From Escherichia phage SD2: 64,000 nt of DNA. A program made the translations under genes and the position numbers. The stretch lies in sequence record PQ821640; one strand, written 5' to 3'. Positions within the stretch are counted from its first letter, which is position 1. Each line of letters begins with the position of its first letter. Of the stretch, positions 9,217 to 50,591 are shown piece after piece. A model generated the notes under the pieces. The model was given only the letters and a program-made list of their open reading frames with translations, was not told where the DNA came from and searched no databases.

Positions 9217-10344
9217 ATGAAATACACGATTTATGGTGATATTGTAAGTGTAAATAAAGATATGGGTGTGGAATCTAATTATCTTCCACCTGGATTCTAT
9301 ACTGTTAGTCGTGATCCCCTTGGCAATTATTTTTTAAGCCGTGGTAATCTAACAGGTGTACCGGATGTTCTGTATGGTGAAACAGAAAAACGAGCAAATC
9401 ACGTTATCCGTACATTCCATCGCCGGAGTGCACAAGGTAAAAATACAGGTTTGCTTCTGACAGGAACTAAGGGCAGTGGTAAAACTATGTTAGCCAAGCT
9501 CATTAGTCGTGACCTTGTAGAAGAAGGTATTCCAACTATTATGGTTACTCAAGCCTACAGTGATGCTAATTTCATTGAACTTATTAGCAAGATCACCGAC
9601 AAAGCAGTGATTATTTTTGACGAGTTTGATAAAGTGTATGAGAAGAAACAAGATCAAGAAGCACTTCTCACTTTGTTAGATGGTACTGGCAGTGGTAATA
9701 AACTGTTTATTCTAACTAAAAACAGTGGCTTTATCTCTGAATTCTTTCTAAATCGTCCTAGTCGTGTGTTTTATAATTTTAATTATGATAAAATCTCACT
9801 AGAAACTATGATTGACTATTTAGATAAAAACCTGGATAACAAAGCACACTTTGATAATTTCCAAAGACTTTGGGATGTAAGTTTAGAGTTGTCCTTTGAT
9901 GTGATCCAAGGTATAGTAGAAGAACTTAATTTCTACCCTGATTTATCCTTTAAAGAATGCATCTCTATGATGGGCGTTTCTTTGGGTGGTGGTAATAAAT
10001 GGGATATCAGCAGCGTTGTTATTAATGGAAAACTTCAGAAAGTTAGCTGGGTATCTAGTTGGCATAACTTCACACCTGCAATCTTTTTAGGTGGTTCGTG
10101 CACACTAGACGTGTACTTGTCATCTCCAAGTGATGCAGACTCTAAAGAAGCCCTTGCTAATAGCTCTTACGTGGTTTTTGATGATGAAGGCGATGCTCGA
10201 ATTCCATTGAATGCGACAAAAATGAAAGCAGATCTTATTACAGGCGGTAAAATCGTTGTGTTTAGTGATGATCCAGAAGATTCTTTCCGTATTGTTCTGG
10301 AACCAACTATCACCAATGGTGCAACTTTGGCAAGTGTGTTTTAA
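9217..10344 (+). CDS. AAA+ family ATPase
   Basis: Walker A GTKGSGKTMLAK; Walker B VIIFDEFD. Confidence 0.75.
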   Translation: MKYTIYGDIVSVNKDMGVESNYLPPGFYTVSRDPLGNYFLSRGNLTGVPDVLYGETEKRANHVIRTFHRRSAQGKNTGLLLTGTKGSGKTMLAKLISRDLVEEGIPTIMVTQAYSDANFIELISKITDKAVIIFDEFDKVYEKKQDQEALLTLLDGTGSGNKLFILTKNSGFISEFFLNRPSRVFYNFNYDKISLETMIDYLDKNLDNKAHFDNFQRLWDVSLELSFDVIQGIVEELNFYPDLSFKECISMMGVSLGGGNKWDISSVVINGKLQKVSWVSSWHNFTPAIFLGGSCTLDVYLSSPSDADSKEALANSSYVVFDDEGDARIPLNATKMKADLITGGKIVVFSDDPEDSFRIVLEPTITNGATLASVF

Positions 10345-39532: not shown

Positions 39533-40091
39533 TCTCCTCTAAAATAGGTTTAATAAATTCGAAGATTTGTTTTTTACTTTTACCTCGAATATTAAAACAA
39601 GGAACATTAAACTTTTTAGCCAACATCCAAGCTGTTCTTGTACCACCTAAAGGATCTCCATTTTTATCTGTATTTGCACAAGCTAAAAGAAAACAAGATG
39701 GTTTTGGATTCTCAAGATCTCTGCCAAGAACTTGGTGGATATTCCTTTGATGTAATTTTTTAGCACCTTGAGATAATCTGTCCCAAGCAGGATGCAATTC
39801 TTTTGCATATTGCAAGGTTAGAGCATAGTTTACACTATCTGGTCTGTCAAGAACAATAACCTCTCCCTCTATCTCATTACCTTTAAACGAAGGCCAAGGA
39901 ATGTATATTTCTTTCTTTGTATTGTTTCCACTATCATATACCCCGCATTCAAATGCGGAATCTGCGCCTTCTGCTTTACCAGATCGTAAAATGAACCATG
40001 TAGATAACCATTTGGCAACAGCTACCATAGTGTCCCATTCTTCGTCTGTAATATCTCTGCTACCAACACCTGTGTAGAATAAATCGCTCAT
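39513..40091 (-). CDS. putative SLOG/DprA-like Rossmann-fold protein
   Basis: Track ORF trimmed to ATG at 40091 (AAGGAGAA SD); GVGSRD and SGKAEGADSAFECG resemble DprA/LOG-type motifs; tentative. Confidence 0.5.
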   Translation of the reverse strand: MSDLFYTGVGSRDITDEEWDTMVAVAKWLSTWFILRSGKAEGADSAFECGVYDSGNNTKKEIYIPWPSFKGNEIEGEVIVLDRPDSVNYALTLQYAKELHPAWDRLSQGAKKLHQRNIHQVLGRDLENPKPSCFLLACANTDKNGDPLGGTRTAWMLAKKFNVPCFNIRGKSKKQIFEFIKPILEENGLVQK

Positions 40092-40101
40092 GGTTTTCTC
40101 C

Positions 40102-40422
40102 TTAACAAGTAATATTGGGAATAATACTGGGAGTAACAATTGGAGTAATAGGGTACGTAAACCAAGGGCTTCCAATTTCCCAAGGACTATAAGGTGTACG
40201 AGGATCAAATGGAGGCGTTACTTGAGGCTTTTTCCAAATCTCCGCTAGTTGTTTCTTCCATTTATCCCTTGCTGTATCGTTATCTTCATCCAACTGTTCG
40301 TCATTATCTTTTATTTCTGATTTTGGAAATAAAAGCTCTTTGACTAACTCAACGTCTTCCGTTTCAATAGTAGTTTCTTTCGTAATATTCCCTACCGTCT
40401 CTTTAATTGTGACTTTATACAT
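40102..40422 (-). CDS. hypothetical protein
   Basis: 106 aa. Confidence 0.6.
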   Translation of the reverse strand: MYKVTIKETVGNITKETTIETEDVELVKELLFPKSEIKDNDEQLDEDNDTARDKWKKQLAEIWKKPQVTPPFDPRTPYSPWEIGSPWFTYPITPIVTPSIIPNITC

Positions 40423-41168
40423 TAGTCCTCCTCTAAAGTAGAATAAAATTGTAACGTATTTGAATCATCAAAATATGCAAAGGTTAAATTACCATTGAAC
40501 ACAGATCCAGTATCCATATATACCCTATTACTGCTAATTACAGGTTTAGGAACATAAGAATGCCCGTGAAATACATAATCTACTCCTGAAACTCTAGGAA
40601 GAAGAATCCCTTCAAGGGCGCAATCTATCATATCACGATCCCACATTAAAGATTCTGTGAATCGAGATACTTGTTCTTTATTCATATTCGAACAAAATGG
40701 CAAAACTTCCGTCACTGGTAGATGTTCCAAAACTGAAGGATATCCTCCGTGAATAAAGCCTAGTTTCATATTACGATAGTTGACAACAAGTACAACAGGT
40801 AAATCTTCTAGCATCAAAGCAAGAGCAGTTGCACCTTCTTCTCCACACTCATTTAGAACTGTATGGCCTCCGTTCTGAAACCAACATTCGTAATATCGCC
40901 TATCACCTTCTAGCAACCCTTTAATCATCATATCTTCGTGATTTCCACGAATAGCATAGCGATTTAGCTTTCTGGTGAATTCAACGGTACAACGAAAATT
41001 CTGCTTGCCGCGATCTGTAAGATCTCCTAAAGATACAACAACATCTTGATCTCGAATACCTAAAGTATTAACACCTTTCTGGTATAAATCAAAGCAACCA
41101 TGTAAATCACCAATAATAAACAGGTCTTGATCATCTTTTACACTAATTTCTTGATATACTAGCATCAA
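40422..41168 (-). CDS. Ser/Thr protein phosphatase (calcineurin-like metallophosphoesterase)
   Basis: GDLHGC, GDLTDRG, GNHE motifs. Confidence 0.8.
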   Translation of the reverse strand: MMLVYQEISVKDDQDLFIIGDLHGCFDLYQKGVNTLGIRDQDVVVSLGDLTDRGKQNFRCTVEFTRKLNRYAIRGNHEDMMIKGLLEGDRRYYECWFQNGGHTVLNECGEEGATALALMLEDLPVVLVVNYRNMKLGFIHGGYPSVLEHLPVTEVLPFCSNMNKEQVSRFTESLMWDRDMIDCALEGILLPRVSGVDYVFHGHSYVPKPVISSNRVYMDTGSVFNGNLTFAYFDDSNTLQFYSTLEED

Positions 41169-41491
41169 CTCTCCTCAAAATCCATAAGTATAAAGATATT
41201 AACTTTACCTTCTATATTATGTTCTACAACAAGATCTGCAAATTCTTTGTAGGCTTTTTCTTCTATTTGCTCAATGTGAGACGCTACATCTTTGTATATA
41301 GCGTCACCATCTACTTTAACAAGGAGGAATAGAGATCTTACCTCAATCTCTTTATTTTTACGGGGTAGAAAATCGACGGCTTCTTGTATACGCCAGCCGA
41401 GATACCCTGGAGTCCTTTGAATATCCTCCAAATGACTTTCTAAGATTTCCCTTCCTTTGTCTATTAAAGCCTGTTCTGTCGTTATTTTCAT
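41165..41491 (-). CDS. hypothetical protein
   Basis: 108 aa. Confidence 0.65.
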   Translation of the reverse strand: MKITTEQALIDKGREILESHLEDIQRTPGYLGWRIQEAVDFLPRKNKEIEVRSLFLLVKVDGDAIYKDVASHIEQIEEKAYKEFADLVVEHNIEGKVNIFILMDFEES

Positions 41492-41501
41492 CCCCTTCTC
41501 C

Positions 41502-42074
41502 TTAATGTGTTAATGAAACTGCGTAACTAAACACAGGTTCAGATATTACATCGGCTACAGTAATAAAAACGTCCTCATCTTGCGTTGTTTCTACACGACA
41601 TACAGTTACACCATTTACCACAAATTCAACGCAATGTGGAATATCTTCACAAACGAATGTAGTGTAAGTAACACCCAAAGCATCATACAAAGATTTAACA
41701 GTATTTGCAAGTGCCGCAGTTTCTTCTTTTTCTGAAACAATGAATGCTGTAACAACAAGATTGTTTGCATAGTTTAGACTGTCCTCTATAGCCAATGATT
41801 TACAAGGTAGTAATGCAAAATATTTACCTGGTTTAATCAGACCTGCTTCCCATTGATTCAAAATTGCCTGGGATGGTTTAGTAATATAAAACAGATTTTC
41901 ACTTGGGTTATCAATATTACTTCTGGCAATACAACGTGAAGGATTATTAATATCAAACACATGATCAAAATCTACACAAACTGGTAAACTGAAAGGTGTA
42001 AATTTTTTACCTAATAATCCTACTGCTGACAATATGTTTGCTGTGCTTATCTTCCCGTTAAAAGCTAAACGCAT
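41502..42074 (-). CDS. hypothetical protein
   Basis: 190 aa. Confidence 0.7.
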   Translation of the reverse strand: MRLAFNGKISTANILSAVGLLGKKFTPFSLPVCVDFDHVFDINNPSRCIARSNIDNPSENLFYITKPSQAILNQWEAGLIKPGKYFALLPCKSLAIEDSLNYANNLVVTAFIVSEKEETAALANTVKSLYDALGVTYTTFVCEDIPHCVEFVVNGVTVCRVETTQDEDVFITVADVISEPVFSYAVSLTH

Positions 42075-42085
42075 ATTTAACTCCT

Positions 42086-42289
42086 TTAACTAGCAACCGT
42101 AACTTCCGAACTTTCTTCTTTCGTACTATCTACGATATGCCTGGTGGCAATATACGAGACTTGCCAGTTACCATCTGGTGTAGTCTCAATAAGTACCCTA
42201 TCTACTTCGAGAAAATGCAAAAATTCAACCATCGCTCGCTTCGATAGGAATTGTTTTTTAACAGTCTCCTCAAAAGATTGAACTGCCAT
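42086..42289 (-). CDS. hypothetical protein
   Basis: 67 aa. Confidence 0.55.
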   Translation of the reverse strand: MAVQSFEETVKKQFLSKRAMVEFLHFLEVDRVLIETTPDGNWQVSYIATRHIVDSTKEESSEVTVAS

Positions 42290-42298
42290 GTTTCCTCC

Positions 42299-42961
42299 TT
42301 ATTTAATATCCAATTTTGCACAAAGACGTTGTACCGCTTTGGCATCGAACAAACTCCCACGAATAGTTCTCTTTCCTGATTCATTCAGATGCTTTGCAAT
42401 CGTCATATATGGCGTTTTACAAGCTCTGTATGCAACTAAAGAATCTTTTAAAGAAAGCGCAAACTCTTTTGAGCGTTTTGCTTCTTCTGTTTTCGTATAA
42501 TCTGTTCTTTTGTATTTAGGGTTTGCTGCACCAAGAAGCGTTCCCTTCGCTTTTGCTACCTTAAGGCTCTTCTTAACACGATCAGATATTGCACGAGCCT
42601 CTTCTTCTGCCAGAACTGCTAAAATATTTATTATCATATTTTCAGCGGAGGGCATAGTTGCTATCCGTACATTAATCATCTCTAACAAGGTTGCAACAGA
42701 AGCTGTGTTACGTCCCAGACGGTCAACCTTAGCAACAACAAGTGTAGCACCTGTTTCTTTGCAAAGATTAACAGCTTTTACAAGCTCTCTACGTTGCTTC
42801 CAATCGCCTTTACCAGAATAAAACTCTGCAAAGCTACCTACAATAGTATAATTTTCTTGTGAATCCAGGAAGCGTTGGATATCTGCTTCCTGTGATTCTA
42901 TACCATACTGGTTGCCTTGTTGTTTCTTCTTAGAAAGTCGATGATACAGTACAAACTTCAT
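42299..42961 (-). CDS. small serine recombinase (resolvase/invertase family)
   Basis: N-terminal YHRLSKKKQQ with catalytic Ser, VAKVDRLGRN motif, C-terminal HTH-like segment. Confidence 0.85.
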   Translation of the reverse strand: MKFVLYHRLSKKKQQGNQYGIESQEADIQRFLDSQENYTIVGSFAEFYSGKGDWKQRRELVKAVNLCKETGATLVVAKVDRLGRNTASVATLLEMINVRIATMPSAENMIINILAVLAEEEARAISDRVKKSLKVAKAKGTLLGAANPKYKRTDYTKTEEAKRSKEFALSLKDSLVAYRACKTPYMTIAKHLNESGKRTIRGSLFDAKAVQRLCAKLDIK

Positions 42962-43018
42962 AACACCCTCCTGTTCTGTTGCAGGAAGTATGCACTACCT
43001 TAATGTTAAAGTCAACAG

Positions 43019-43234
43019 TTAAGTAGTGGTAATATCATCCTCTTGAATATCAGGGTCAACTTCTGCAAAGATAGCCTCTACAGGAATTTCTTCACCTGCT
43101 ATTCTAGAAAGAAGCACTGAACCAATAGCTTTTGCGTGTTCTTCGGATTCCGCATAAACATTAGTTCCTGTGTCTTTTTTCTTAGTTTCGTTAAAATATA
43201 CCAGATAGTAATTGTATGCCATTATTCTTCCCAA
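43019..43234 (-). CDS. hypothetical protein
   Basis: 71 aa. Confidence 0.55.
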   Translation of the reverse strand: MGRIMAYNYYLVYFNETKKKDTGTNVYAESEEHAKAIGSVLLSRIAGEEIPVEAIFAEVDPDIQEDDITTT

Positions 43235-43473
43235 TCGTTGTTACGAGCACTTTCAAGAACCTTGACAACTTCTGCGTACTCTACAGCTAAACCAGCACAC
43301 ACTTCAGCTTGTTTTGCAATTGCTTGCTTAAAGAACATAGCGATTGCAACACTCTGTGTTGTGTGAATGTTATCTGCTTTAGTTGATACATGAAGATCAA
43401 AATCTTCTTCATCAAAGGTGAGTTCCATAGTAACAATAAATTTCTCGGTCATAAAAATGCTCCTCTTAAACAA
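43222..43473 (-). CDS. hypothetical protein
   Basis: 83 aa. Confidence 0.6.
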   Translation of the reverse strand: MFKRSIFMTEKFIVTMELTFDEEDFDLHVSTKADNIHTTQSVAIAMFFKQAIAKQAEVCAGLAVEYAEVVKVLESARNNDWEE

Positions 43474-43975
43474 AATAGAAAGGTTGAGTTAAACCCAGCC
43501 TGTTTTTTGGGTCGTAGACGTACCAAGCATATGCTGTCTTGTCAGTACCACCTGCAACAAAAGATGGTCGTTCAGAAAGAACAATCAAATTTGTTGGTGG
43601 ATTCTGTTTATGGAATTCCCTTCGTTTAATAGACTCTAGGAACCCAAGACGCAACAAGTATATGCAAACGTCTGCTTCTTTTAAGCTCTTTTGCAAGAAC
43701 TCAAGTGCAAGTCTGAATGGTGGATTTGTGATTATAATATCCGGCTTAGTATGCCATTCGTGGTTAAAATAATCCTTCCCTTCTTCTAACTCACAATATT
43801 CTGATCCTTCTGGAAAATATTGATAAATTGCAGCAGCAGCGCCTTTACATGGTTCTGCAAAAATAAAACCTTCTTCTTTAAGGTTATTAAAATCTATTAC
43901 ACTAAATAATGCATTTATACATTTTTGTGGAGTAGGATAGTAATCAGTTGGTGGACGATCATACTTATTTGCCAC
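43466..43975 (-). CDS. DNA N6-adenine methyltransferase (phage type)
   Basis: Catalytic NPPF in DIIITNPPF and an N-terminal Tyr/Pro-rich segment. Confidence 0.75.
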   Translation of the reverse strand: MANKYDRPPTDYYPTPQKCINALFSVIDFNNLKEEGFIFAEPCKGAAAAIYQYFPEGSEYCELEEGKDYFNHEWHTKPDIIITNPPFRLALEFLQKSLKEADVCIYLLRLGFLESIKRREFHKQNPPTNLIVLSERPSFVAGGTDKTAYAWYVYDPKNRLGLTQPFYFV

Positions 43976-44393
43976 TACTTAAAATCTCCTCTTTTGTGAT
44001 TTCAGGGTTTTCTTCAAAAACCATAATATCTCTTAAGAACGTTAATTCTTCCATAGATACTGGTATTGTATCTTCTTCTGTTTTTCGTTTACATAAGTCG
44101 TCAAGAAAGTTTTTAACGCTTTCTGACACATCATAAAATTTCAACAGTTGATAATCACAGGAGGAGATCCTATCTAGTTCTAACATTCTTTCTAAGATAT
44201 TTTCTGTGTTGCCGTACAACACACGAACTTCTCCGAAAGGGTTGACTAAATATTGTGAAGTTCTGAACCATCCCTTTTTAGATACAGTGTAACGCTGTTC
44301 TGCTAAACTTTCAATAAAATTTTTAGCCCTTTTACAGTTTTGTTCTAAAGAGTAGTAGGCTTTTTCTACAAAGATTACAGGTACTGGTAACAT
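43965..44393 (-). CDS. hypothetical protein
   Basis: 142 aa; AGGAGGA SD. Confidence 0.65.
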   Translation of the reverse strand: MLPVPVIFVEKAYYSLEQNCKRAKNFIESLAEQRYTVSKKGWFRTSQYLVNPFGEVRVLYGNTENILERMLELDRISSCDYQLLKFYDVSESVKNFLDDLCKRKTEEDTIPVSMEELTFLRDIMVFEENPEITKEEILSSGK

Positions 44394-44407
44394 ATCTCCT
44401 CCTAATA

Positions 44408-44424
44408 ACCCCCGTGAGGGGGTT
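44408..44424 (-). terminator. intergenic hairpin (possible attenuator or processing site)
   Basis: AACCCCC-GTGA-GGGGGTT; no clear T-run. Confidence 0.35.
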
Positions 44425-44433
44425 TATGTTAGA

Positions 44434-45087
44434 TTAATTATCAGAGGATACTTTATCAAGTTTTTCAGAGACTGTCAATACTTTTTCTTGTGATTCTTTC
44501 ATTTCTGCTAAAATACTTTCAGCTTCATCACTATCAGGATCACCAGTCAACAGCATACTAATTAGTTGCTCCTTGCTGAAGTTCAGAATATCTTCCGCTG
44601 TTAGCTCCAGTTGTTCTTCAATCTCTTCGACAAAAGTTTCACCGCCTGAAAAAGCATCTCGTAGTTTTGCAACTTCCATCGCTTCTTCTGGGGTTGCCCC
44701 AGCGTCTAAAGCTGCTAAAGCAAAATCTGCCCCACTACCAACAGCATAGTAATCTTCAGTTAAAGGATATGCTCGCGTTGGATTATTACCCTCGTGCATA
44801 TAAATTTTACCGTCTGGGTGAACAACCAATGCCACAAACTCTTCATCTTCTTTATCAGGATCTGACTGGATCACCAAGCCTGGGATTGTCTCTTGTGCTG
44901 CCTGGCACTGTAAGTTTTGTTCGAACCAAGAAAAGAAAGTCAGGATAGAAGACAGACGTCCTGCACCACCAACAAGGTAATCCCCAATTTTACGCACTTT
45001 CTTGAAATTTAAAGTGTCTACTCGATTACCTACTGTTACTTTACCGTCAGATAGAATTTTGTTATGTGTTGCAATAATTGTTGTCAT
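44434..45087 (-). CDS. HslV-like N-terminal-nucleophile peptidase with acidic C-terminal extension
   Basis: MTTIIATHNKILSDGKVTVGN, FxxVRKIGDYLVGGAG and AVGSGADFALAAL resemble E. coli HslV as I recall it; Thr2 as putative nucleophile. Confidence 0.7.
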   Translation of the reverse strand: MTTIIATHNKILSDGKVTVGNRVDTLNFKKVRKIGDYLVGGAGRLSSILTFFSWFEQNLQCQAAQETIPGLVIQSDPDKEDEEFVALVVHPDGKIYMHEGNNPTRAYPLTEDYYAVGSGADFALAALDAGATPEEAMEVAKLRDAFSGGETFVEEIEEQLELTAEDILNFSKEQLISMLLTGDPDSDEAESILAEMKESQEKVLTVSEKLDKVSSDN

Positions 45088-45578
45088 TGTACTTCCTCCT
45101 GTAGTGTTTTAAGGACTGCTTTACCACCGCTTACATACTTACGTAGGTAATCAATAGCTCTTAGTGTTTCTTTATCCACAAGAATTTTATTGGTTCTTGT
45201 TAGTGGATGATTTAGTAAATCACTGCAATTTCTTACTAACATAGATTTCTTGTGAAAGATACTGCTAAGAAAAAGAAGTTTAGAATCTTCTTCATCAATC
45301 AGGAGTAATTCTGAATTAGACCCAGCTACATTTATTATACACTCAAACAAGCCTTCTTGACTATCAGATAATTCCTGGTAATATTTAGTTAGCCAATCCT
45401 CTCCTTTTAACCAACTAAAAAACATCTGAACTTTTTGCAAAGTTGTCATGTTCTCTAAACGAAGAGATATTTCTTTTTCAATCTTGTCAATATAAATCTG
45501 TCTAAACTCATTCGGCTTAACTAAGCCAGCTTGATAGCATTCATCAATACCATTGCGATCAATCTCAATTAGCGTCAT
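45084..45578 (-). CDS. hypothetical protein
   Basis: 164 aa. Confidence 0.65.
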   Translation of the reverse strand: MTLIEIDRNGIDECYQAGLVKPNEFRQIYIDKIEKEISLRLENMTTLQKVQMFFSWLKGEDWLTKYYQELSDSQEGLFECIINVAGSNSELLLIDEEDSKLLFLSSIFHKKSMLVRNCSDLLNHPLTRTNKILVDKETLRAIDYLRKYVSGGKAVLKTLQEEVQ

Positions 45579-45614
45579 TTAACCTCCATAATAGGCATCC
45601 TTGCCTTGTAATTA

Positions 45615-46367
45615 TTAATATACTTCCGTGATGAACTGAGACAAACGGGAACGTTGGTTATCAGCAGTTGTCATTTCAACATAACCAATAAAATCTACAA
45701 TAGCTTCCCTTTCTCCTTCTTCGTTAATAGGAACAACACGATCTAACAAATCACCTAACCCGTTAGCTCTTCGTTTAATTGCATATGTTTGATTAACATC
45801 GCCCATAATGACAATACGTGTATTAAGACCTGCTCGCTCAAGGAGAAGTTTTACTGTGTTTGGTGACATAAGTTGAACTTCATCAATAAGAATAATGCTG
45901 TTATCCCACGTAGCACCTAGTGCATAGTTCGGAATATTAAGTTCAATTTTGCCACTTGCAATATCGTTTTCCAATTTATTTGCAGTCATAAACTGTTGGA
46001 AAATTCTTTTAGTTGACTCGTAGTGTGCTGCTAGTTTATCAGTCTTATCTCCAGATAAGAAACCGATTTGGTCATCACCTACTTCTGTCGGGTTTTTAAG
46101 GAAAATCAACTTTCTGAAGTCACCAGCTTTAAGCATTTGCAATGCTTTCCATAGTGCTGTTGTCGTTTTTCCTGTTCCTGCTGGGGCATTCACAATGGTT
46201 AAATCATTCCAAACCATGCTTCTTACAATAGCTTCTTGATTCCCAACAGGGGTAAATTCATCAAGACGGTAATCATCATTTCCTACTGCTTTAGCCGCAT
46301 AACGACTGGCACGTTTGTCATCATTGGCTGCTGATTGACGACGAGCCTTTGCGGTTTTATTTCCCAT
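45615..46367 (-). CDS. phoH: PhoH-like ATPase
   Basis: Walker A APAGTGKTTTA, Walker B ILIDEVQ. Confidence 0.85.
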   Translation of the reverse strand: MGNKTAKARRQSAANDDKRASRYAAKAVGNDDYRLDEFTPVGNQEAIVRSMVWNDLTIVNAPAGTGKTTTALWKALQMLKAGDFRKLIFLKNPTEVGDDQIGFLSGDKTDKLAAHYESTKRIFQQFMTANKLENDIASGKIELNIPNYALGATWDNSIILIDEVQLMSPNTVKLLLERAGLNTRIVIMGDVNQTYAIKRRANGLGDLLDRVVPINEEGEREAIVDFIGYVEMTTADNQRSRLSQFITEVY

Positions 46368-46379
46368 GTTTGCACTCCT

Positions 46380-46405
46380 TATAAAAGGGGCTTTCGCCCC
46401 TTTGT
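46380..46405 (-). terminator. rho-independent terminator
   Basis: GGGGC-TTTC-GCCCC then T-run on the minus strand. Confidence 0.7.
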
Positions 46406-46906
46406 TTAGTTATAAGCGTCTAATGTTCCAGTTTTAAGCACCTGAATTACACGCTCTGCGCGATTAGGCGTTTGGCGATACCATTTACTTTTACGTAAAT
46501 TTATAGAGGCTTGAGTATAATATGAATTACTCACTAAAGTCAAGCTATTTTTGAAAGATTCTGCACCTTTCAATCCCATTTGAAATACCATATTAATAAT
46601 AGCCATTTTACGATTAGGACTTACTTTATCGTAAATAGGAGATAATATGGTGCTTGAATGGATTTGTTGTATCGCTTTCTTTACGTCACTCTCAAAGATT
46701 CTTCTAGCTTCCGCTTCAGTAATAACTCCATTGGTTTTTCTACCTACTAAGTTATCAAGAATGCGTATAGCTTCTGCTTTATCTTTGAGTTTTGTCAGAA
46801 GGTGTCCAATACCAACTGTCCAATACCCTTCGGTATCAGGATATACAGTTAGCTTTAGTCCTTCATCAAAACGTAACATATCAAACACATCAACTACTTT
46901 AGCCAT
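46406..46906 (-). CDS. T4-type lysozyme (GH24 endolysin)
   Basis: DEGLKLTVYPDTEGYWTVGIGHLL closely matches the T4 lysozyme N-terminus as I recall it. Confidence 0.9.
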   Translation of the reverse strand: MAKVVDVFDMLRFDEGLKLTVYPDTEGYWTVGIGHLLTKLKDKAEAIRILDNLVGRKTNGVITEAEARRIFESDVKKAIQQIHSSTILSPIYDKVSPNRKMAIINMVFQMGLKGAESFKNSLTLVSNSYYTQASINLRKSKWYRQTPNRAERVIQVLKTGTLDAYN

Positions 46907-46918
46907 GTTTTCCTTATA

Positions 46919-47062
46919 TTAGTCGCCCTCCCCATGATCTAGCTCTTGAAACAGTAGGTGTTCAGGAGACATTTCACGTTTAGGCTTCGTCTTTTTAGTT
47001 TGGGACTTAAGCTCTGTTGCCAAAGCACGAGAAAAGATCTTACGTTTCTGTTTACCTTTCAT
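46919..47062 (-). CDS. small basic protein (47 aa)
   Basis: MKGKQKRKIFSRALATELKSQTKKTKPKREMSPEHLLFQ...; GGAG SD. Confidence 0.4.
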   Translation of the reverse strand: MKGKQKRKIFSRALATELKSQTKKTKPKREMSPEHLLFQELDHGEGD

Positions 47063-47066
47063 ATTG

Positions 47067-47333
47067 TTACTCCGCAATCTGAGCCATGAATTCACGTAGT
47101 TCAGAAAAACCTCCTACGTGGGTTAGCTGTTCACCATCTTCCACAAAAATCTGAGGAAATGTGCGTGGTAGAACACCTGTTTTCTCTAAAACCAGATTCT
47201 GAATCTGATCTAAAGAATAGTCTTCATCTAAGGTAAGATATTTAAAATCCTGTTCACGCTGTTCTAGTAGAATCTTAGCGTTAGTGCAGAAAGGACAATT
47301 TGGTTTACCGTAGATAATAAAATTCATTTTCAC
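47067..47333 (-). CDS. glutaredoxin-like protein
   Basis: CPFC active-site motif in IIYGKPNCPFCTNAK. Confidence 0.85.
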   Translation of the reverse strand: MKMNFIIYGKPNCPFCTNAKILLEQREQDFKYLTLDEDYSLDQIQNLVLEKTGVLPRTFPQIFVEDGEQLTHVGGFSELREFMAQIAE

Positions 47334-48160
47334 TCCTTGTTTAAAAGTATAGTTAAAGTTCTTACAATACCGCTATCAACACTTCGCGGATTTAAAGTAG
47401 GATCTGTTTTTAAATAAGATGTTGCTGGTCTGACTGCTTTGGAATTATAGGTTGAAGCAGATACAGGATTAACTGTAACAGATAAATCTATAACAAGAAA
47501 TATCTTTCGTGCAAAATCATACCAAGAAATATAATCTGCACCTGCATAGTGTACAATTTTACTATTTACACCATCTTTTACAAGTTTAAAAATTGTTTCT
47601 GCAAGATCAGGTGCATAAGTAGGACATGACAAATGATCACATACTACATTAAATTCTTTTTGACCACCGTTGTAGCGTTCCAACATAGTTTTCAAAAAGT
47701 TATGTCCAAATTCACTATAAACAGAAGCTGTTCTGATAATAAGTGCTGTAGGACAAACTGTTTGTACTAAAGTTTCACCTAATTGTTTACTGTAACCGTA
47801 GGTGTTCAAGGGGTTTGTTTTACTATCTTCTGTGCCAGCAACATGCCCATCAAAAACATAGTCTGTTGAAATATGTACAAACTGTATCAGTAAATCATTA
47901 CATGCTTTGGCAATGTTTGTTGCACCGTATGCATTAACATTTATACAGGTGTTAACATCTTCTTCAGCTTTATCTACTGCCGTGTAAGCCGCACAATTCA
48001 CAACAACATCAGGCACATGCTGTACAAGACTATTCATAACATCTTTAAAGTTGGTAATGTCTACATCACTTGCTTCAATCAAAATAACATCTTCGGGCGC
48101 AACTTTTGCCAAAGACTGTCCTAATTGACCTTTTGAACCAAAGATTAAAAATTTTGTCAA
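47330..48160 (-). CDS. rmlD: dTDP-4-dehydrorhamnose reductase
   Basis: N-terminal Rossmann FGSKGQLG; last gene of an rmlB-A-C-D array; overlaps rmlC by 4 nt. Confidence 0.8.
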   Translation of the reverse strand: MTKFLIFGSKGQLGQSLAKVAPEDVILIEASDVDITNFKDVMNSLVQHVPDVVVNCAAYTAVDKAEEDVNTCINVNAYGATNIAKACNDLLIQFVHISTDYVFDGHVAGTEDSKTNPLNTYGYSKQLGETLVQTVCPTALIIRTASVYSEFGHNFLKTMLERYNGGQKEFNVVCDHLSCPTYAPDLAETIFKLVKDGVNSKIVHYAGADYISWYDFARKIFLVIDLSVTVNPVSASTYNSKAVRPATSYLKTDPTLNPRSVDSGIVRTLTILLNKE

Positions 48161-48711
48161 AATATGATCTCCTTTAGTGTTTTGGCTTGCTGATCTTTTT
48201 GTGACAAGATAGGTTTAAAATTAATATCATTAAAGATTAAATCAAAACCCCAATCAATATTGATATCTGGATCATTCCACGCAAGACTACACTCTGAAGT
48301 CGGATCGTAATATTCTGTACATTTATATTCAAAATCAGCAATGTCACTAATCACAACAAAGCCATGAGCGAAACCAGGAGGAATCCAAAATTGTGTTTTA
48401 TTCTTTTCAGATAAGAGAACACCTACCCATTCTCCAAATGTTGGACTACCAACCCTAATATCTACAGCAACATCATAAACTTCACCACGAACACAACGTA
48501 CTAACTTCCCTTGTGGGTTTTTCTTTTGAAAATGAAGCCCACGTAGAACTCCTCGAATAGAACGTGAGTGGTTATCCTGGACAAAGTTTTGTTTACCTAT
48601 GTATTGATCATATAAAGCCTGATTAAAACTTTCTAAGAAAAAGCCACGTTCATCTCCGTAAACGTCAGGTTGAATGATCAACAAATCTTCGATTTTTGTT
48701 GCTTGAATCAT
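48157..48711 (-). CDS. rmlC: dTDP-4-dehydrorhamnose 3,5-epimerase
   Basis: Cupin-type RmlC sequence; operon context. Confidence 0.85.
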   Translation of the reverse strand: MIQATKIEDLLIIQPDVYGDERGFFLESFNQALYDQYIGKQNFVQDNHSRSIRGVLRGLHFQKKNPQGKLVRCVRGEVYDVAVDIRVGSPTFGEWVGVLLSEKNKTQFWIPPGFAHGFVVISDIADFEYKCTEYYDPTSECSLAWNDPDINIDWGFDLIFNDINFKPILSQKDQQAKTLKEIIF

Positions 48712-48723
48712 TTAATTCCCCCT

Positions 48724-49593
48724 TTATTTTAATTTAAGTAAATACTTACCGTAGTCTGTTTTACTTAAAACCTCTCCAGAATTTTTTACAGAATCTAAAG
48801 TAATCCATTCATTTTTAAAAGCAATCTCTTCCAGGCATGCAACCTTCATACCTTGTTGCTTTTCTATTGCATGAACAAATTGAGATGCCTCCATAAGACT
48901 TTCATGTGTTCCTGTATCCAGCCAAGTGAAACCTCTTCCTAGTTTACAGACACGTAAAGTTTTTTCTTTCCAGTACATCTCATTTATATCTGTAATCTCT
49001 AACTCCCCTCTAGCAGAAGGTTTAACGCTCTTAGCTTTCTGTATAACAGAATTATCGTAAAAGTACAAGCCTGTGATTGCGTAGTTGCTTTTTGGTGCTT
49101 TTGGTTTTTCTTCAATACTCACCACTGTACCTTCAGAATCAAACTCAACAACACCAAATCTTTCAGGATCATTTACGTGATACCCAAAAATATTAGCTCC
49201 ACCATTCTTTTCAATATGTTCTTTAGCAGAATCTAAAATGCTACCAAAACTCTGACCAAAGAATAAATTATCACCTAGCACAAGTGCTACAGAATCTTCA
49301 CCAATAAAGTTCTCACCAATAATAAAGGCTTCTGCTAAACCTTTTGGGCTGTTCTGTACTGCATACTGTAGGGAAATACCAAAAGAAGAACCATCACCTA
49401 AAAGATTTACAAAATTAATTTGATCTTCTGGTGTTGTAATTATTAGTATTTCCCTAATTCCAGAAAGCATTAGGACAGAGAGTGGATAATAAATCATAGG
49501 CTTATCGTAAATTGGTAATAGTTGTTTACTAAACCCTTTAGTAACTGGGTAAAGTCTTGTTCCGCTACCACCTGCTAAGATAATACCTTTCAT
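48724..49593 (-). CDS. rmlA: glucose-1-phosphate thymidylyltransferase
   Basis: [18 protein letters not shown] signature N-terminus. Confidence 0.9.
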
Positions 49594-49601
49594 ACTCCTC
49601 C

Positions 49602-50591
49602 TTAAACTTTATTTTCCCACCACTCTTTGTTATCTACATACCAATCAATGGTTGAATAAAGTTTTTCTTCAAATGTGCCTTTAGCTTTCCACCCTAATTC
49701 CTTTTCAATCTTATAAGGATTCACTTCATATCTTAGATCATGCCCAGGTCTATCTGTAACCATCTCAATTAGGCTACAAGCATCTGTTTCAGATGGATAC
49801 ACCGCATCCATATAATCACAAATCATATAGATTACATCAATATTAGTTCTAGGGTTTCTGCTCCCAATATTATATGTTTCTCCAGATTTGCCTTTAGTTA
49901 CTACTAGGTGTAATGCTTCTGCGTGATCGTCAACGTATAACCAGTCTCTTACTTGAAGACCATTGCCATAAACAGGGATTGGTTTATTCATCAAGATATT
50001 TGTTATCGTTTTAGGTATTAGTTTTTCTGGATGATGATATGCTCCAAAATTATTTGAACAATTTGTTATAACTGTCGGAATACCATAAGTACGATGCCAC
50101 GCTCTTACCAAATGATCGCTTGCTGCCTTAGATGCAGCATATGGACTACTTGGCTTATAAGGATTCTGTTCTGTAAACGGATAATCCCCTTCTTCCAGAT
50201 CACCATACACTTCATCTGTTGAAATATGATGGAACATTTTAAGATTTGATTTATCTCCCATTAAACGAACAGCTTCTAGAAGATTAAATGTCCCAACAAT
50301 ATTTGAATTTATAAAAACACTCGGTGATGCTATTGAATTATCTACGTGACTTTCTGCTGCAAGATGCATTATATAATCTGGATTAACATCTGCCACAATC
50401 TTAGCAGTTAACTGCGCATTTGTCAAGTCAACACGACAAAACTTTACATTGGGTGTTTCTGATAAATTTCTAGGGTCTGAAGCGTAACCCCATTTATCTA
50501 TAACGTAAATATCATTTTTAGTATTTTTAGCCAGGAAACGAACTACCGCACTTCCAATAAAGCCTAAACCACCTGTTACTAAGTATTTCAT
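49602..50591 (-). CDS. rmlB: dTDP-glucose 4,6-dehydratase
   Basis: GGLGFIGS Rossmann motif and YAASKAASD catalytic YxxxK. Confidence 0.9.

Follow-up and report, generated by a model that had tools for sequence, protein, structure and literature searches.

Results

A proteasome-like threonine peptidase gene in Escherichia phage SD2

The 64,000-nucleotide stretch of DNA from Escherichia phage SD2 (sequence record PQ821640) that was analysed here, and that is referred to throughout as the window, contains on its minus strand a homologue of phi92 gp058 (98.6% identity), the product of which is, judging from its sequence, very probably an active threonine peptidase of the PPH/RPC type of proteasome homologue and not HslV. 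The initial annotation of this locus had described an HslV-like peptidase with a Met-Thr start, a 40-residue acidic tail and no HslU partner in the window. The open reading frame (ORF) and its Met-Thr start were confirmed, the strand (minus) being a new detail (Table 1): the N terminus reads MTTIIATHNK, with Met-Thr-Thr at its start, and because the ATG is the earliest start codon past the upstream in-frame stop, there is no room for a propeptide. On the same strand, the gene is preceded by genes for a T4-type lysozyme, a PhoH-like ATPase and a 164-amino acid protein, the stop codon of the last overlapping the peptidase start (ATGA), and it is followed by a 142-amino acid ORF and a DNA methyltransferase-like ORF. 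Bases 40000-50000 of the window are 99% identical to phi92-like Escherichia coli phages (Justusliebigvirus, Stephanstirmvirinae), including vB_EcoM_AMO3598, alia and PHB05. Identical (100%) proteins have been deposited in many phi92-like phages as "peptidase HslV family," "20S proteasome" or "putative proteasome component"; annotation of the protein as an HslV-family or proteasome peptidase is thus already present in public records.

Table 1. Features of the SD2 peptidase locus and candidate partner genes (window coordinates)
Feature	Position	Strand	Basis or remark
Proteasome-like threonine peptidase gene, phi92 gp058 homologue	44434..45087	-	Uninterrupted ORF, 217 amino acids plus stop
Catalytic Ntn-hydrolase core, residues 1-157	44617..45087	-	Alignments to HslV and human beta5; AlphaFold secondary structure
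Helical linker motif, residues 158-181	44545..44616	-	Recurs in relatives with differing tails; helices 164-169 and 172-181 in the model
Acidic tail, residues 182-217 plus stop	44434..44544	-	Composition; low identity among relatives
Ribosome-binding site GGAGGA	45094..45099	-	6-nucleotide spacer to the peptidase ATG; read from the sequence
164-amino acid gene, upstream of the peptidase; candidate partner	45084..45578	-	Co-syntenic with the peptidase within the phage lineage
PhoH-like P-loop ATPase, the ATPase nearest the peptidase	45615..46367	-	Pfam PhoH PF02562, E 1.4e-35
375-amino acid classical AAA-family ATPase	9217..10344	+	PF00004, 38.9 bits; ~34 kb from the peptidase

The peptidase is a divergent member of the proteasome family

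The homology of the SD2 peptidase to HslV and the proteasome is far beyond chance. The protein matched PHROG 1040 ("peptidase HslV family") with an E value of 1.5e-62, and its score against the Pfam Proteasome family (PF00227), 24.4 bits, was just over the gathering score of 22.4. Among solved structures in the PDB, the best sequence match was HslV, both for the single sequence (E 2.4e-7) and for a profile of 21 family sequences (E 1.1e-12), the eukaryotic beta5 subunit being next with the profile (E 5e-5); nothing useful came of searching the PDB with only the C-terminal half of the core. The two NCBIfam equivalog models for HslV were not reached, with 34.5 bits against a cut-off of 137 for NF003964 and 32.2 bits against a cut-off of 157.75 for TIGR03692. 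An AlphaFold model of the single chain, built on the alignment of the 21-sequence family, had a mean predicted local distance difference test (pLDDT) score of 82.7, with most of the core above 90. In a Foldseek search with this model, HslV, archaeal 20S beta and BPH were matched near-equally (E ~1e-9; target-normalised TM-scores of 0.55-0.69), and the alignment to E. coli HslV showed 22% identity. Because these matches are near-equal, the peptidase is a divergent member of the proteasome family and not an HslV orthologue. The initial description as HslV-like therefore stands as far as membership of the proteasome/HslV superfamily and a complete, conserved active site are concerned, but, given the equivalog scores, does not extend to orthology.

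The active site is complete and near-invariant among relatives

With the proteasome numbering in parentheses, the active-site residues of the SD2 peptidase are Thr2 (Thr1), Asp14 (Asp17), Lys30 (Lys33) and Gly43 (Gly47), together with Ser118 (Ser129), Asp144 (Asp166) and Ser147 (Ser169). Consistent with the earlier impression of motifs in common with HslV, T2, D14, K30, G43 and S118 all align with HslV T1, D17, K33, G48 and S124. A profile alignment (hhalign) to human beta5, the sequence of which is identical to PDB 1iru_L, placed G117-S118-G119 on beta5 G128-S129-G130 and R143-D144-A-F-S147-G148-G149 on beta5 R165-D166-A-Y-S169-G170-G171. At the position of this RDxxSGG motif, Thermotoga maritima HslV has GEICIYTNQ, and the motif of the phage protein is therefore closer to that of the 20S proteasome than to that of HslV.

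Conservation was counted over 227 family members, considering the ungapped rows at each position. Thr2 was present in 215 of 217 rows, Asp14 in 218 of 220, Lys30 in 219 of 223 and Gly43 in 223 of 225; among the 227 relatives, Ser118 was found in 210 (with Thr in a further 15), Asp144 in 215, and Ser or Thr at position 147 in 217. That the catalytic positions are near-invariant over so many relatives argues for what would be a working enzyme. Further, because methionine aminopeptidase tolerates Thr as the residue after Met, and because E. coli HslV starts with the same MTTI as the phage peptidase, it is a reasonable inference that removal of Met1 would expose the Thr as an N-terminal nucleophile, in agreement with the reading of the Met-Thr start in the initial annotation.

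Helix H2 is absent from the model and an acidic loop takes the place of the pore motif

In the AlphaFold model, helix H1 (residues 45-67) is followed by a loop (residues 68-84, IPGLVIQSDPDKEDEEF, pLDDT 82-86) and then by a strand; the second helix, H2, is absent. The segment from H1 to S7 comprises 39 residues in the SD2 peptidase compared with 25-30 in short relatives. In HslV, the pocket between subunits into which the C-terminal tail of HslU fits is lined by A79 and K80 of H2 as well as by F54, F57 and Q114, and A79/K80 have this role in the Haemophilus influenzae and E. coli HslUV complexes (PMC6429459). Because helix H2 is missing, this HslU-tail pocket is predicted to be incomplete in the phage peptidase. 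Further, the HslV pore motif around L88 aligns with the acidic stretch DKEDEE, which is neither basic nor hydrophobic, and acidity of the H2/pore loop is a feature of the family as a whole: its ~15 residues contain on average 4.4 Asp/Glu against 1.0 Lys/Arg.

A conserved linker carries a variable acidic tail

Past the last core strand (residues 152-155), the model contains two short linker helices and then a long helix (residues 187-213) with pLDDT values of 50-70. The acidic tail noted initially was evident: residues 158-217 contain 16 Asp/Glu against 5 Lys/Arg, and the last 40 residues contain 11 against 4. The linker motif, E-L-T-x-E...S-K-E-Q-L-I...L-L-T-G in the SD2 peptidase, recurs across otherwise dissimilar relatives in the form E-L-T-x-E, 4-5 residues, S/T-K-E-E-L-L, F-G. 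In relatives with a core that averages 82% identity to the SD2 protein, identity falls to 49% in the linker (residues 158-181) and to 22% in the tail (residues 182-217), and the acidic tail is thus fast-evolving compared with the conserved core. Interchangeable ends on a conserved linker and enzyme would be expected if the ends choose targets or locations, and action on specific host targets, which the initial annotation had put forward, is possible and compatible with modular, fast-evolving tails.

Longer relatives, of 260-380 amino acids, bear additional C-terminal modules. Relatives P0061, P0063-P0067, P0069, P0071 and P0084 all end in a W-x-x-N-T-G-x-x-P...W-[KR]-L module that has no Pfam match, and some of them have a Cys/His-rich segment (C-x-H...C-x-x-C). 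Many long relatives (P0073, P0091-P0093, P0097, P0102, P0112, P0113, P0115, P0124, P0127 and P0133) end in a helix pair, L-K-x-x-A-x-x-L-G-I-x-Y-A-H-N-I-S-x-E-K-L, that resembles HeH/SAP/Rho_N; in Pfam, these ends gave single sub-threshold matches only (Ish1, 0.0088; Rho_N, 0.022). If real, such ends would suggest nucleic-acid or nucleoid targeting of the peptidase.

No specific ATPase partner is supported

The genes that flank the peptidase gene, encoding the PhoH-like protein and two ORF products, include no AAA+ protein, and neither HslU nor ClpX is annotated in the complete phi92-like genome PHB05. We therefore agree with the initial annotation that no AAA+ unfoldase lies beside the peptidase and that PhoH, a PF02562 protein and not an AAA+ unfoldase, is near but not HslU-like. 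The further statement that the window holds no partner is compatible with the annotation of PHB05 as regards HslU, but has to be qualified by the classical AAA-family ATPase encoded ~34 kb away. The sequence of this protein contains Walker A (GTKGSGKT) and Walker B (IIFDEFD) motifs and an arginine-finger-like RPSR, and a paralogue lies outside the window (PHB05 118223-119383). The AAA ATPase was found in 379 phage records, many of them from phages of Bacillus, Enterococcus, Staphylococcus and Lactococcus; these four Gram-positive genera are not among the leading organisms of the 171 phage records that carry the peptidase. Because its distribution does not track that of the peptidase, we set aside the two AAA ATPases as unfoldase candidates. 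AAA ATPases of this family are common in large myoviruses and go by the name "FtsH-like protease" in some records.

A comparison of gene neighbourhoods covered 50 loci. The order lysozyme, PhoH, 164-amino acid ORF, peptidase, 142-amino acid ORF and methyltransferase is kept in every Stephanstirmvirinae-like locus examined, and PhoH is adjacent to the peptidase in the phi92, phAPEC8, FBKp34, Vibrio phage 1.187.O and Shewanella phage 1/40 lineages, the peptidases of the last two being 33-37% identical. The PhoH-adjacent phages share a larger block, comprising ribonucleotide reductase or glutaredoxin, lysozyme, PhoH, peptidase, invertase and DprA, and common ancestry therefore suffices to explain the adjacency. 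In Aeromonas phage 4L372D, six genes separate a weak PhoH match from the peptidase, and no PhoH was found near the peptidase in Vibrio phage 1.121.O, Erythrobacter phage L02, Caulobacter phage CcrColossus or any of the distant metagenomic loci; nor did any ATPase recur at distant peptidase loci. PhoH adjacency is thus lineage synteny, and PhoH was downgraded accordingly as a functional link. The 164-amino acid protein, which is confined to the phage lineage of SD2, is predicted to be a helical bundle (pLDDT 93.4) and showed no specific resemblance to any structure in the PDB. Overall, the results support no specific ATPase partner for the peptidase.

The leftward gene array to which the peptidase gene belongs also contains a Hin-type DNA invertase gene (42299..42961, minus strand) and a gene for an RmlD-like reductase of the dTDP-rhamnose pathway (47330..48160, minus strand); homologues of RmlA, RmlB and RmlC are annotated farther along in related genomes. 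Short G+C-rich inverted repeats lie in the intergenic gaps around the peptidase gene (44407-44424, 45593-45606 and 46384-46403), for example AACCCCC-GTGA-GGGGGTT directly past the peptidase stop. They lack a full T run and might serve in RNA processing or stability, or act as weak terminators. A promoter and terminator scan around the peptidase gene gave counts close to those of shuffled sequence, and neither the peptidase nor its two small neighbours had a match in PADLOC.

A deposited genome of phage VEcB lacks the catalytic N terminus

In the deposited genome of phage VEcB (MT932211, NC_052663), the peptidase is replaced by a 267-amino acid fusion of PhoH residues 1-114 to peptidase residues 65-217, the result of an in-frame deletion of 1130 nucleotides between 8-nucleotide repeats (locus L053, NC_052663.1). 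The same repeat, GCAGCACA, occurs in the window on the minus strand at 46024-46031 and 44894-44901, exactly 1130 nucleotides apart, and the VEcB gap thus bears what would be the signature of a deletion at microhomology. The deletion takes out peptidase residues 1-64, including Thr2, Asp14, Lys30 and Gly43, along with all of the 164-amino acid gene and PhoH from residue 115 to its C terminus. A second VEcB record (OZ035773.1) has an intact peptidase gene, and it appears either that both forms of VEcB exist or that one of the records is in error. If the assembly is right, VEcB would have been propagated without all three genes, which suggests that the peptidase gene may be dispensable.

The peptidase shows the traits of a published phage-encoded clade

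Fuchs, Alva and Lupas (2021) catalogued new proteasome homologues, including PPH and RPC, which alone among proteasome homologues lack helix H2 (PMC8665760). The reference sequence is WP_042125023.1 for PPH and WP_140207863 for RPC. In their survey, propeptides are restricted to proteasome beta and HslV; C-terminal extensions are directed away from the presumed ring and are possible sites of interaction; PPH occurs also in Actinobacteria, a phylum for which Table 1 of that work gives no HslV; RPC is listed from Proteobacteria only and not from phages; and the absence of a partner unfoldase had already been remarked for the PPH/RPC family (PMC8665760). The SD2 peptidase shows the structural traits of this clade, being a phage-encoded protein with a proteasome-like core, no propeptide and no H2. 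With 217 amino acids and a 60-residue extension, it falls outside the length of PPH and fits the description of RPC, although RPC has been reported from Proteobacteria only; we place it, by its described traits, as either of the PPH type or of its C-terminally extended relative RPC.

The family is large. A deep profile search returned 7038 cluster representatives at E <= 1e-3, among which are also more distant members of the proteasome family, and 1401 at the stricter limit of E <= 1e-10. Relatives with 138-155 amino acids and an MTT start are numerous, and the family profile reaches MTT proteins of ~140 amino acids at E values of 1e-18 to 1e-22. In BFVD, 47 viral clusters have the peptidase fold, some of them from jumbo phages. 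A scan of 185,579 species-representative bacterial genomes with the long-form alignment gave one 425-nucleotide contig only. The annotation of the complete PHB05 genome lists no further gene of the proteasome family, and tblastn found one place per record. At least four of five "Campylobacter phage" records (MG065639, MG065645, MG065656 and MG065689) carry a 99%-identical peptidase in genomes of ~146 kb, and the host label is probably wrong or the result of contamination.

Discussion

Taken as a whole, we consider it reasonably probable that the SD2 protein is an accessory, unfoldase-independent PPH/RPC threonine peptidase with tail-mediated targeting. The parts of this interpretation are not equally firm: an active PPH/RPC-type threonine peptidase distinct from HslV is the part that we hold with most confidence, whereas independence of any unfoldase combined with targeting through the tail is put forward tentatively, at slightly under an even chance. 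According to this scheme, host methionine aminopeptidase would strip Met1, as it does for E. coli HslV, freeing the Thr amine and hydroxyl to act as base and nucleophile. The peptidase would then assemble as a homo-oligomer, probably ring-shaped. Its substrates, which could be peptides, unfolded proteins or particular proteins, would be cut with no unfoldase dedicated to the task and would be recruited or gated by the C-terminal linker and tail, a part that faces away from the ring in the proteasome family. Going by gene position, the peptidase gene would share its expression with the genes for replication and nucleotide metabolism in the long leftward array, and it would be an accessory gene, dispensable for growth in the laboratory.

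Several points weigh against this scheme. Isolated proteasome subunits are inactive, so that activity depends on assembly. With two classical AAA ATPases and a neighbouring PhoH-like ATPase encoded in the genome, an unfoldase may yet be involved, the timing of expression is read from gene position, and the VEcB deletion may reflect a laboratory variant or a fault of assembly. Further, Fuchs et al. point out that ring formation may be absent in some proteasome homologues (PMC8665760), and a search of the accessible literature returned no functional study of phage HslV-like or PPH proteins, only the bioinformatic paper of 2021.

The initial annotation had raised the possibility that the protein hijacks host HslU, and the host does encode hslVU. 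In such a case, the phage peptidase would dock where HslV normally does on the HslU hexamer of E. coli and redirect ATP-dependent degradation to targets useful to the phage. HslV is indeed the closest solved relative by sequence, the MTTI N terminus is identical to that of E. coli HslV, and the hydrophobic H1 positions aligned to HslV F57 and F60 are retained. However, the model lacks helix H2, which in HslV provides the A79/K80 pocket residues for the HslU C-terminal tail (PMC6429459), the residues at the HslV pore motif are acidic, the equivalog scores are far under their cut-offs, and PPH occurs in Actinobacteria, a phylum without a listed HslV (PMC8665760). Weakened by the missing H2 and the acidic pore-motif segment, recruitment of host HslU is disfavoured and in our view unlikely. 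The same missing docking wall bears on the idea of a decoy, in which catalysis would be irrelevant and the protein would titrate or poison HslU or HslV of the host: a decoy would fit the likeness to HslV and the acidic tail, a possible mimic of substrate or nucleic acid, but near-invariant catalytic residues over 227 relatives argue for selection on activity, and we regard a decoy as extremely improbable. Nor do we see much chance that substrates are unfolded and delivered by a phage ATPase, be it the PhoH-like protein with the 164-amino acid protein as adaptor or one of the two AAA ATPases. The order PhoH, (small ORF), peptidase is kept across five lineages, two of them with peptidases only 33-37% identical, the 164-amino acid gene overlaps the peptidase start by ATGA, the VEcB deletion takes all three genes together, and both PF00004 AAA ATPases have Walker A, Walker B and RPxR arginine-finger-like motifs. 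Yet the adjacency lies within a larger block (glutaredoxin, lysozyme, PhoH, peptidase, invertase and DprA), Vibrio phage 1.121.O, Erythrobacter, Caulobacter and distant metagenomic loci keep the peptidase without a nearby PhoH, PhoH is not an AAA+ unfoldase, and the AAA ATPase (379 records) is not co-distributed with the peptidase (171 records). PhoH-family proteins have been linked to RNA metabolism. A bolder version, in which PhoH, the 164-amino acid adaptor and an H2-less mini-proteasome form a new nucleotide-dependent degradation machine with the variable acidic tail for docking, is a long shot, and so is reading the adjacency at 33-37% peptidase identity, the translational coupling of two of the genes and their joint loss in VEcB as signs of it: block synteny explains these facts more simply, and distant relatives of the peptidase have no PhoH nearby.

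Two further alternatives concern the kind of reaction and its place in the phage life cycle. Ntn hydrolases include many non-protease amidases, and the protein might be a small-molecule amidohydrolase or a sequence-specific transpeptidase/ligase resembling connectase. The loss of H2, and of ring assembly if that too has gone, would be in keeping with a monomeric enzyme of this sort. Connectase shows that proteasome homologues can be ligases, but the S3-S4 insertion that is the basis of its specificity (PMC8665760) is absent from our model, the full proteasome-type set of residues, including Asp166 and Ser169, is kept, and nothing in the neighbourhood points to a small-molecule pathway; a non-degradative role thus seems rather improbable. 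As for a protease of head maturation or of other virion processing, the head module of PHB05 (locus L051, 9805-11402, outside the window) is annotated with a portal protein, a 371-amino acid protein, a decoration protein and the major capsid protein but not with a protease, and the 371-amino acid protein, unmatched in Pfam, falls in a PHROG that has no assigned function. Nevertheless, the peptidase gene lies ~35 kb from the head module, on the opposite strand and amid replication and metabolism genes, it is deleted in the deposited VEcB genome, and its relatives are found in varied non-structural contexts, including beside NinB-like recombination genes. A head-maturation protease was therefore rejected on gene position and on the natural VEcB deletion, and hardly any likelihood is left to a role in virion processing.

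Peptidases of the proteasome family usually depend on an unfoldase or a partner ring. That a large clade of viral enzymes has neither H2 nor a conserved ATPase partner therefore raises the question of how such an enzyme is assembled and gated, and also that of what a lytic phage gains from a threonine protease of its own, for which host takeover, removal of defence or regulatory proteins and recycling of amino acids are possible answers. A copy in a phi92-like phage that infects E. coli K-12, together with the deletion in one deposited genome, would make a convenient experimental entry point. The annotation of the peptidase and the bioinformatic description of its family are already known. Our analysis adds the finding that an acidic segment replaces H2 and the pore motif throughout the family, the retention of Asp166 and Ser169 of the 20S type, the conserved linker with its modular, fast-evolving tails, the recognition of PhoH adjacency as lineage synteny, and a deletion suggesting that the gene may be dispensable.

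Comparison with known systems

The SD2 peptidase resembles HslV in that HslV is its best sequence match among solved structures, in the MTTI start, in the Thr1, Asp17, Lys33, Gly and Ser124 positions and in the similar size of the core. It differs from HslV in the absence of H2, in the acidic segment at the HslV pore motif, in having kept RDxxSGG, in its 60-residue C-terminal extension and in having no hslU gene alongside. HslV itself forms a dodecamer, in which two hexameric rings are stacked. With 20S beta subunits, which function in a four-ring alpha/beta particle, it shares the PF00227 match and the Ser129, Asp166, Ser169 and Gly170 motif, and archaeal beta is among the top Foldseek matches; in contrast to 20S beta, it has no propeptide, no alpha-subunit partner and neither helix H2 nor helix H5, and it matches them weakly in sequence (E 5e-5 with the family profile). 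BPH of Thiobacillus denitrificans (PDB 5ovs/5ovt) is, similarly, a group-I homologue with an acidic pore loop and no known unfoldase (PMC8665760), and its Foldseek E value of 3.6e-9 is on par with the HslV matches. However, BPH has helix H2, a double heptameric ring and no C-terminal tail, and its TM-score is 0.55 compared with ~0.65 for HslV and archaeal beta. The closest likeness in described traits is to PPH and RPC, with a proteasome-like beta-sandwich that has the Thr1, Asp17, Lys33 and Gly47 positions, no propeptide and no H2; at 217 amino acids the SD2 peptidase is longer than PPH (~140 amino acids), and, as in RPC, it has a C-terminal extension of the kind that points away from the presumed ring.

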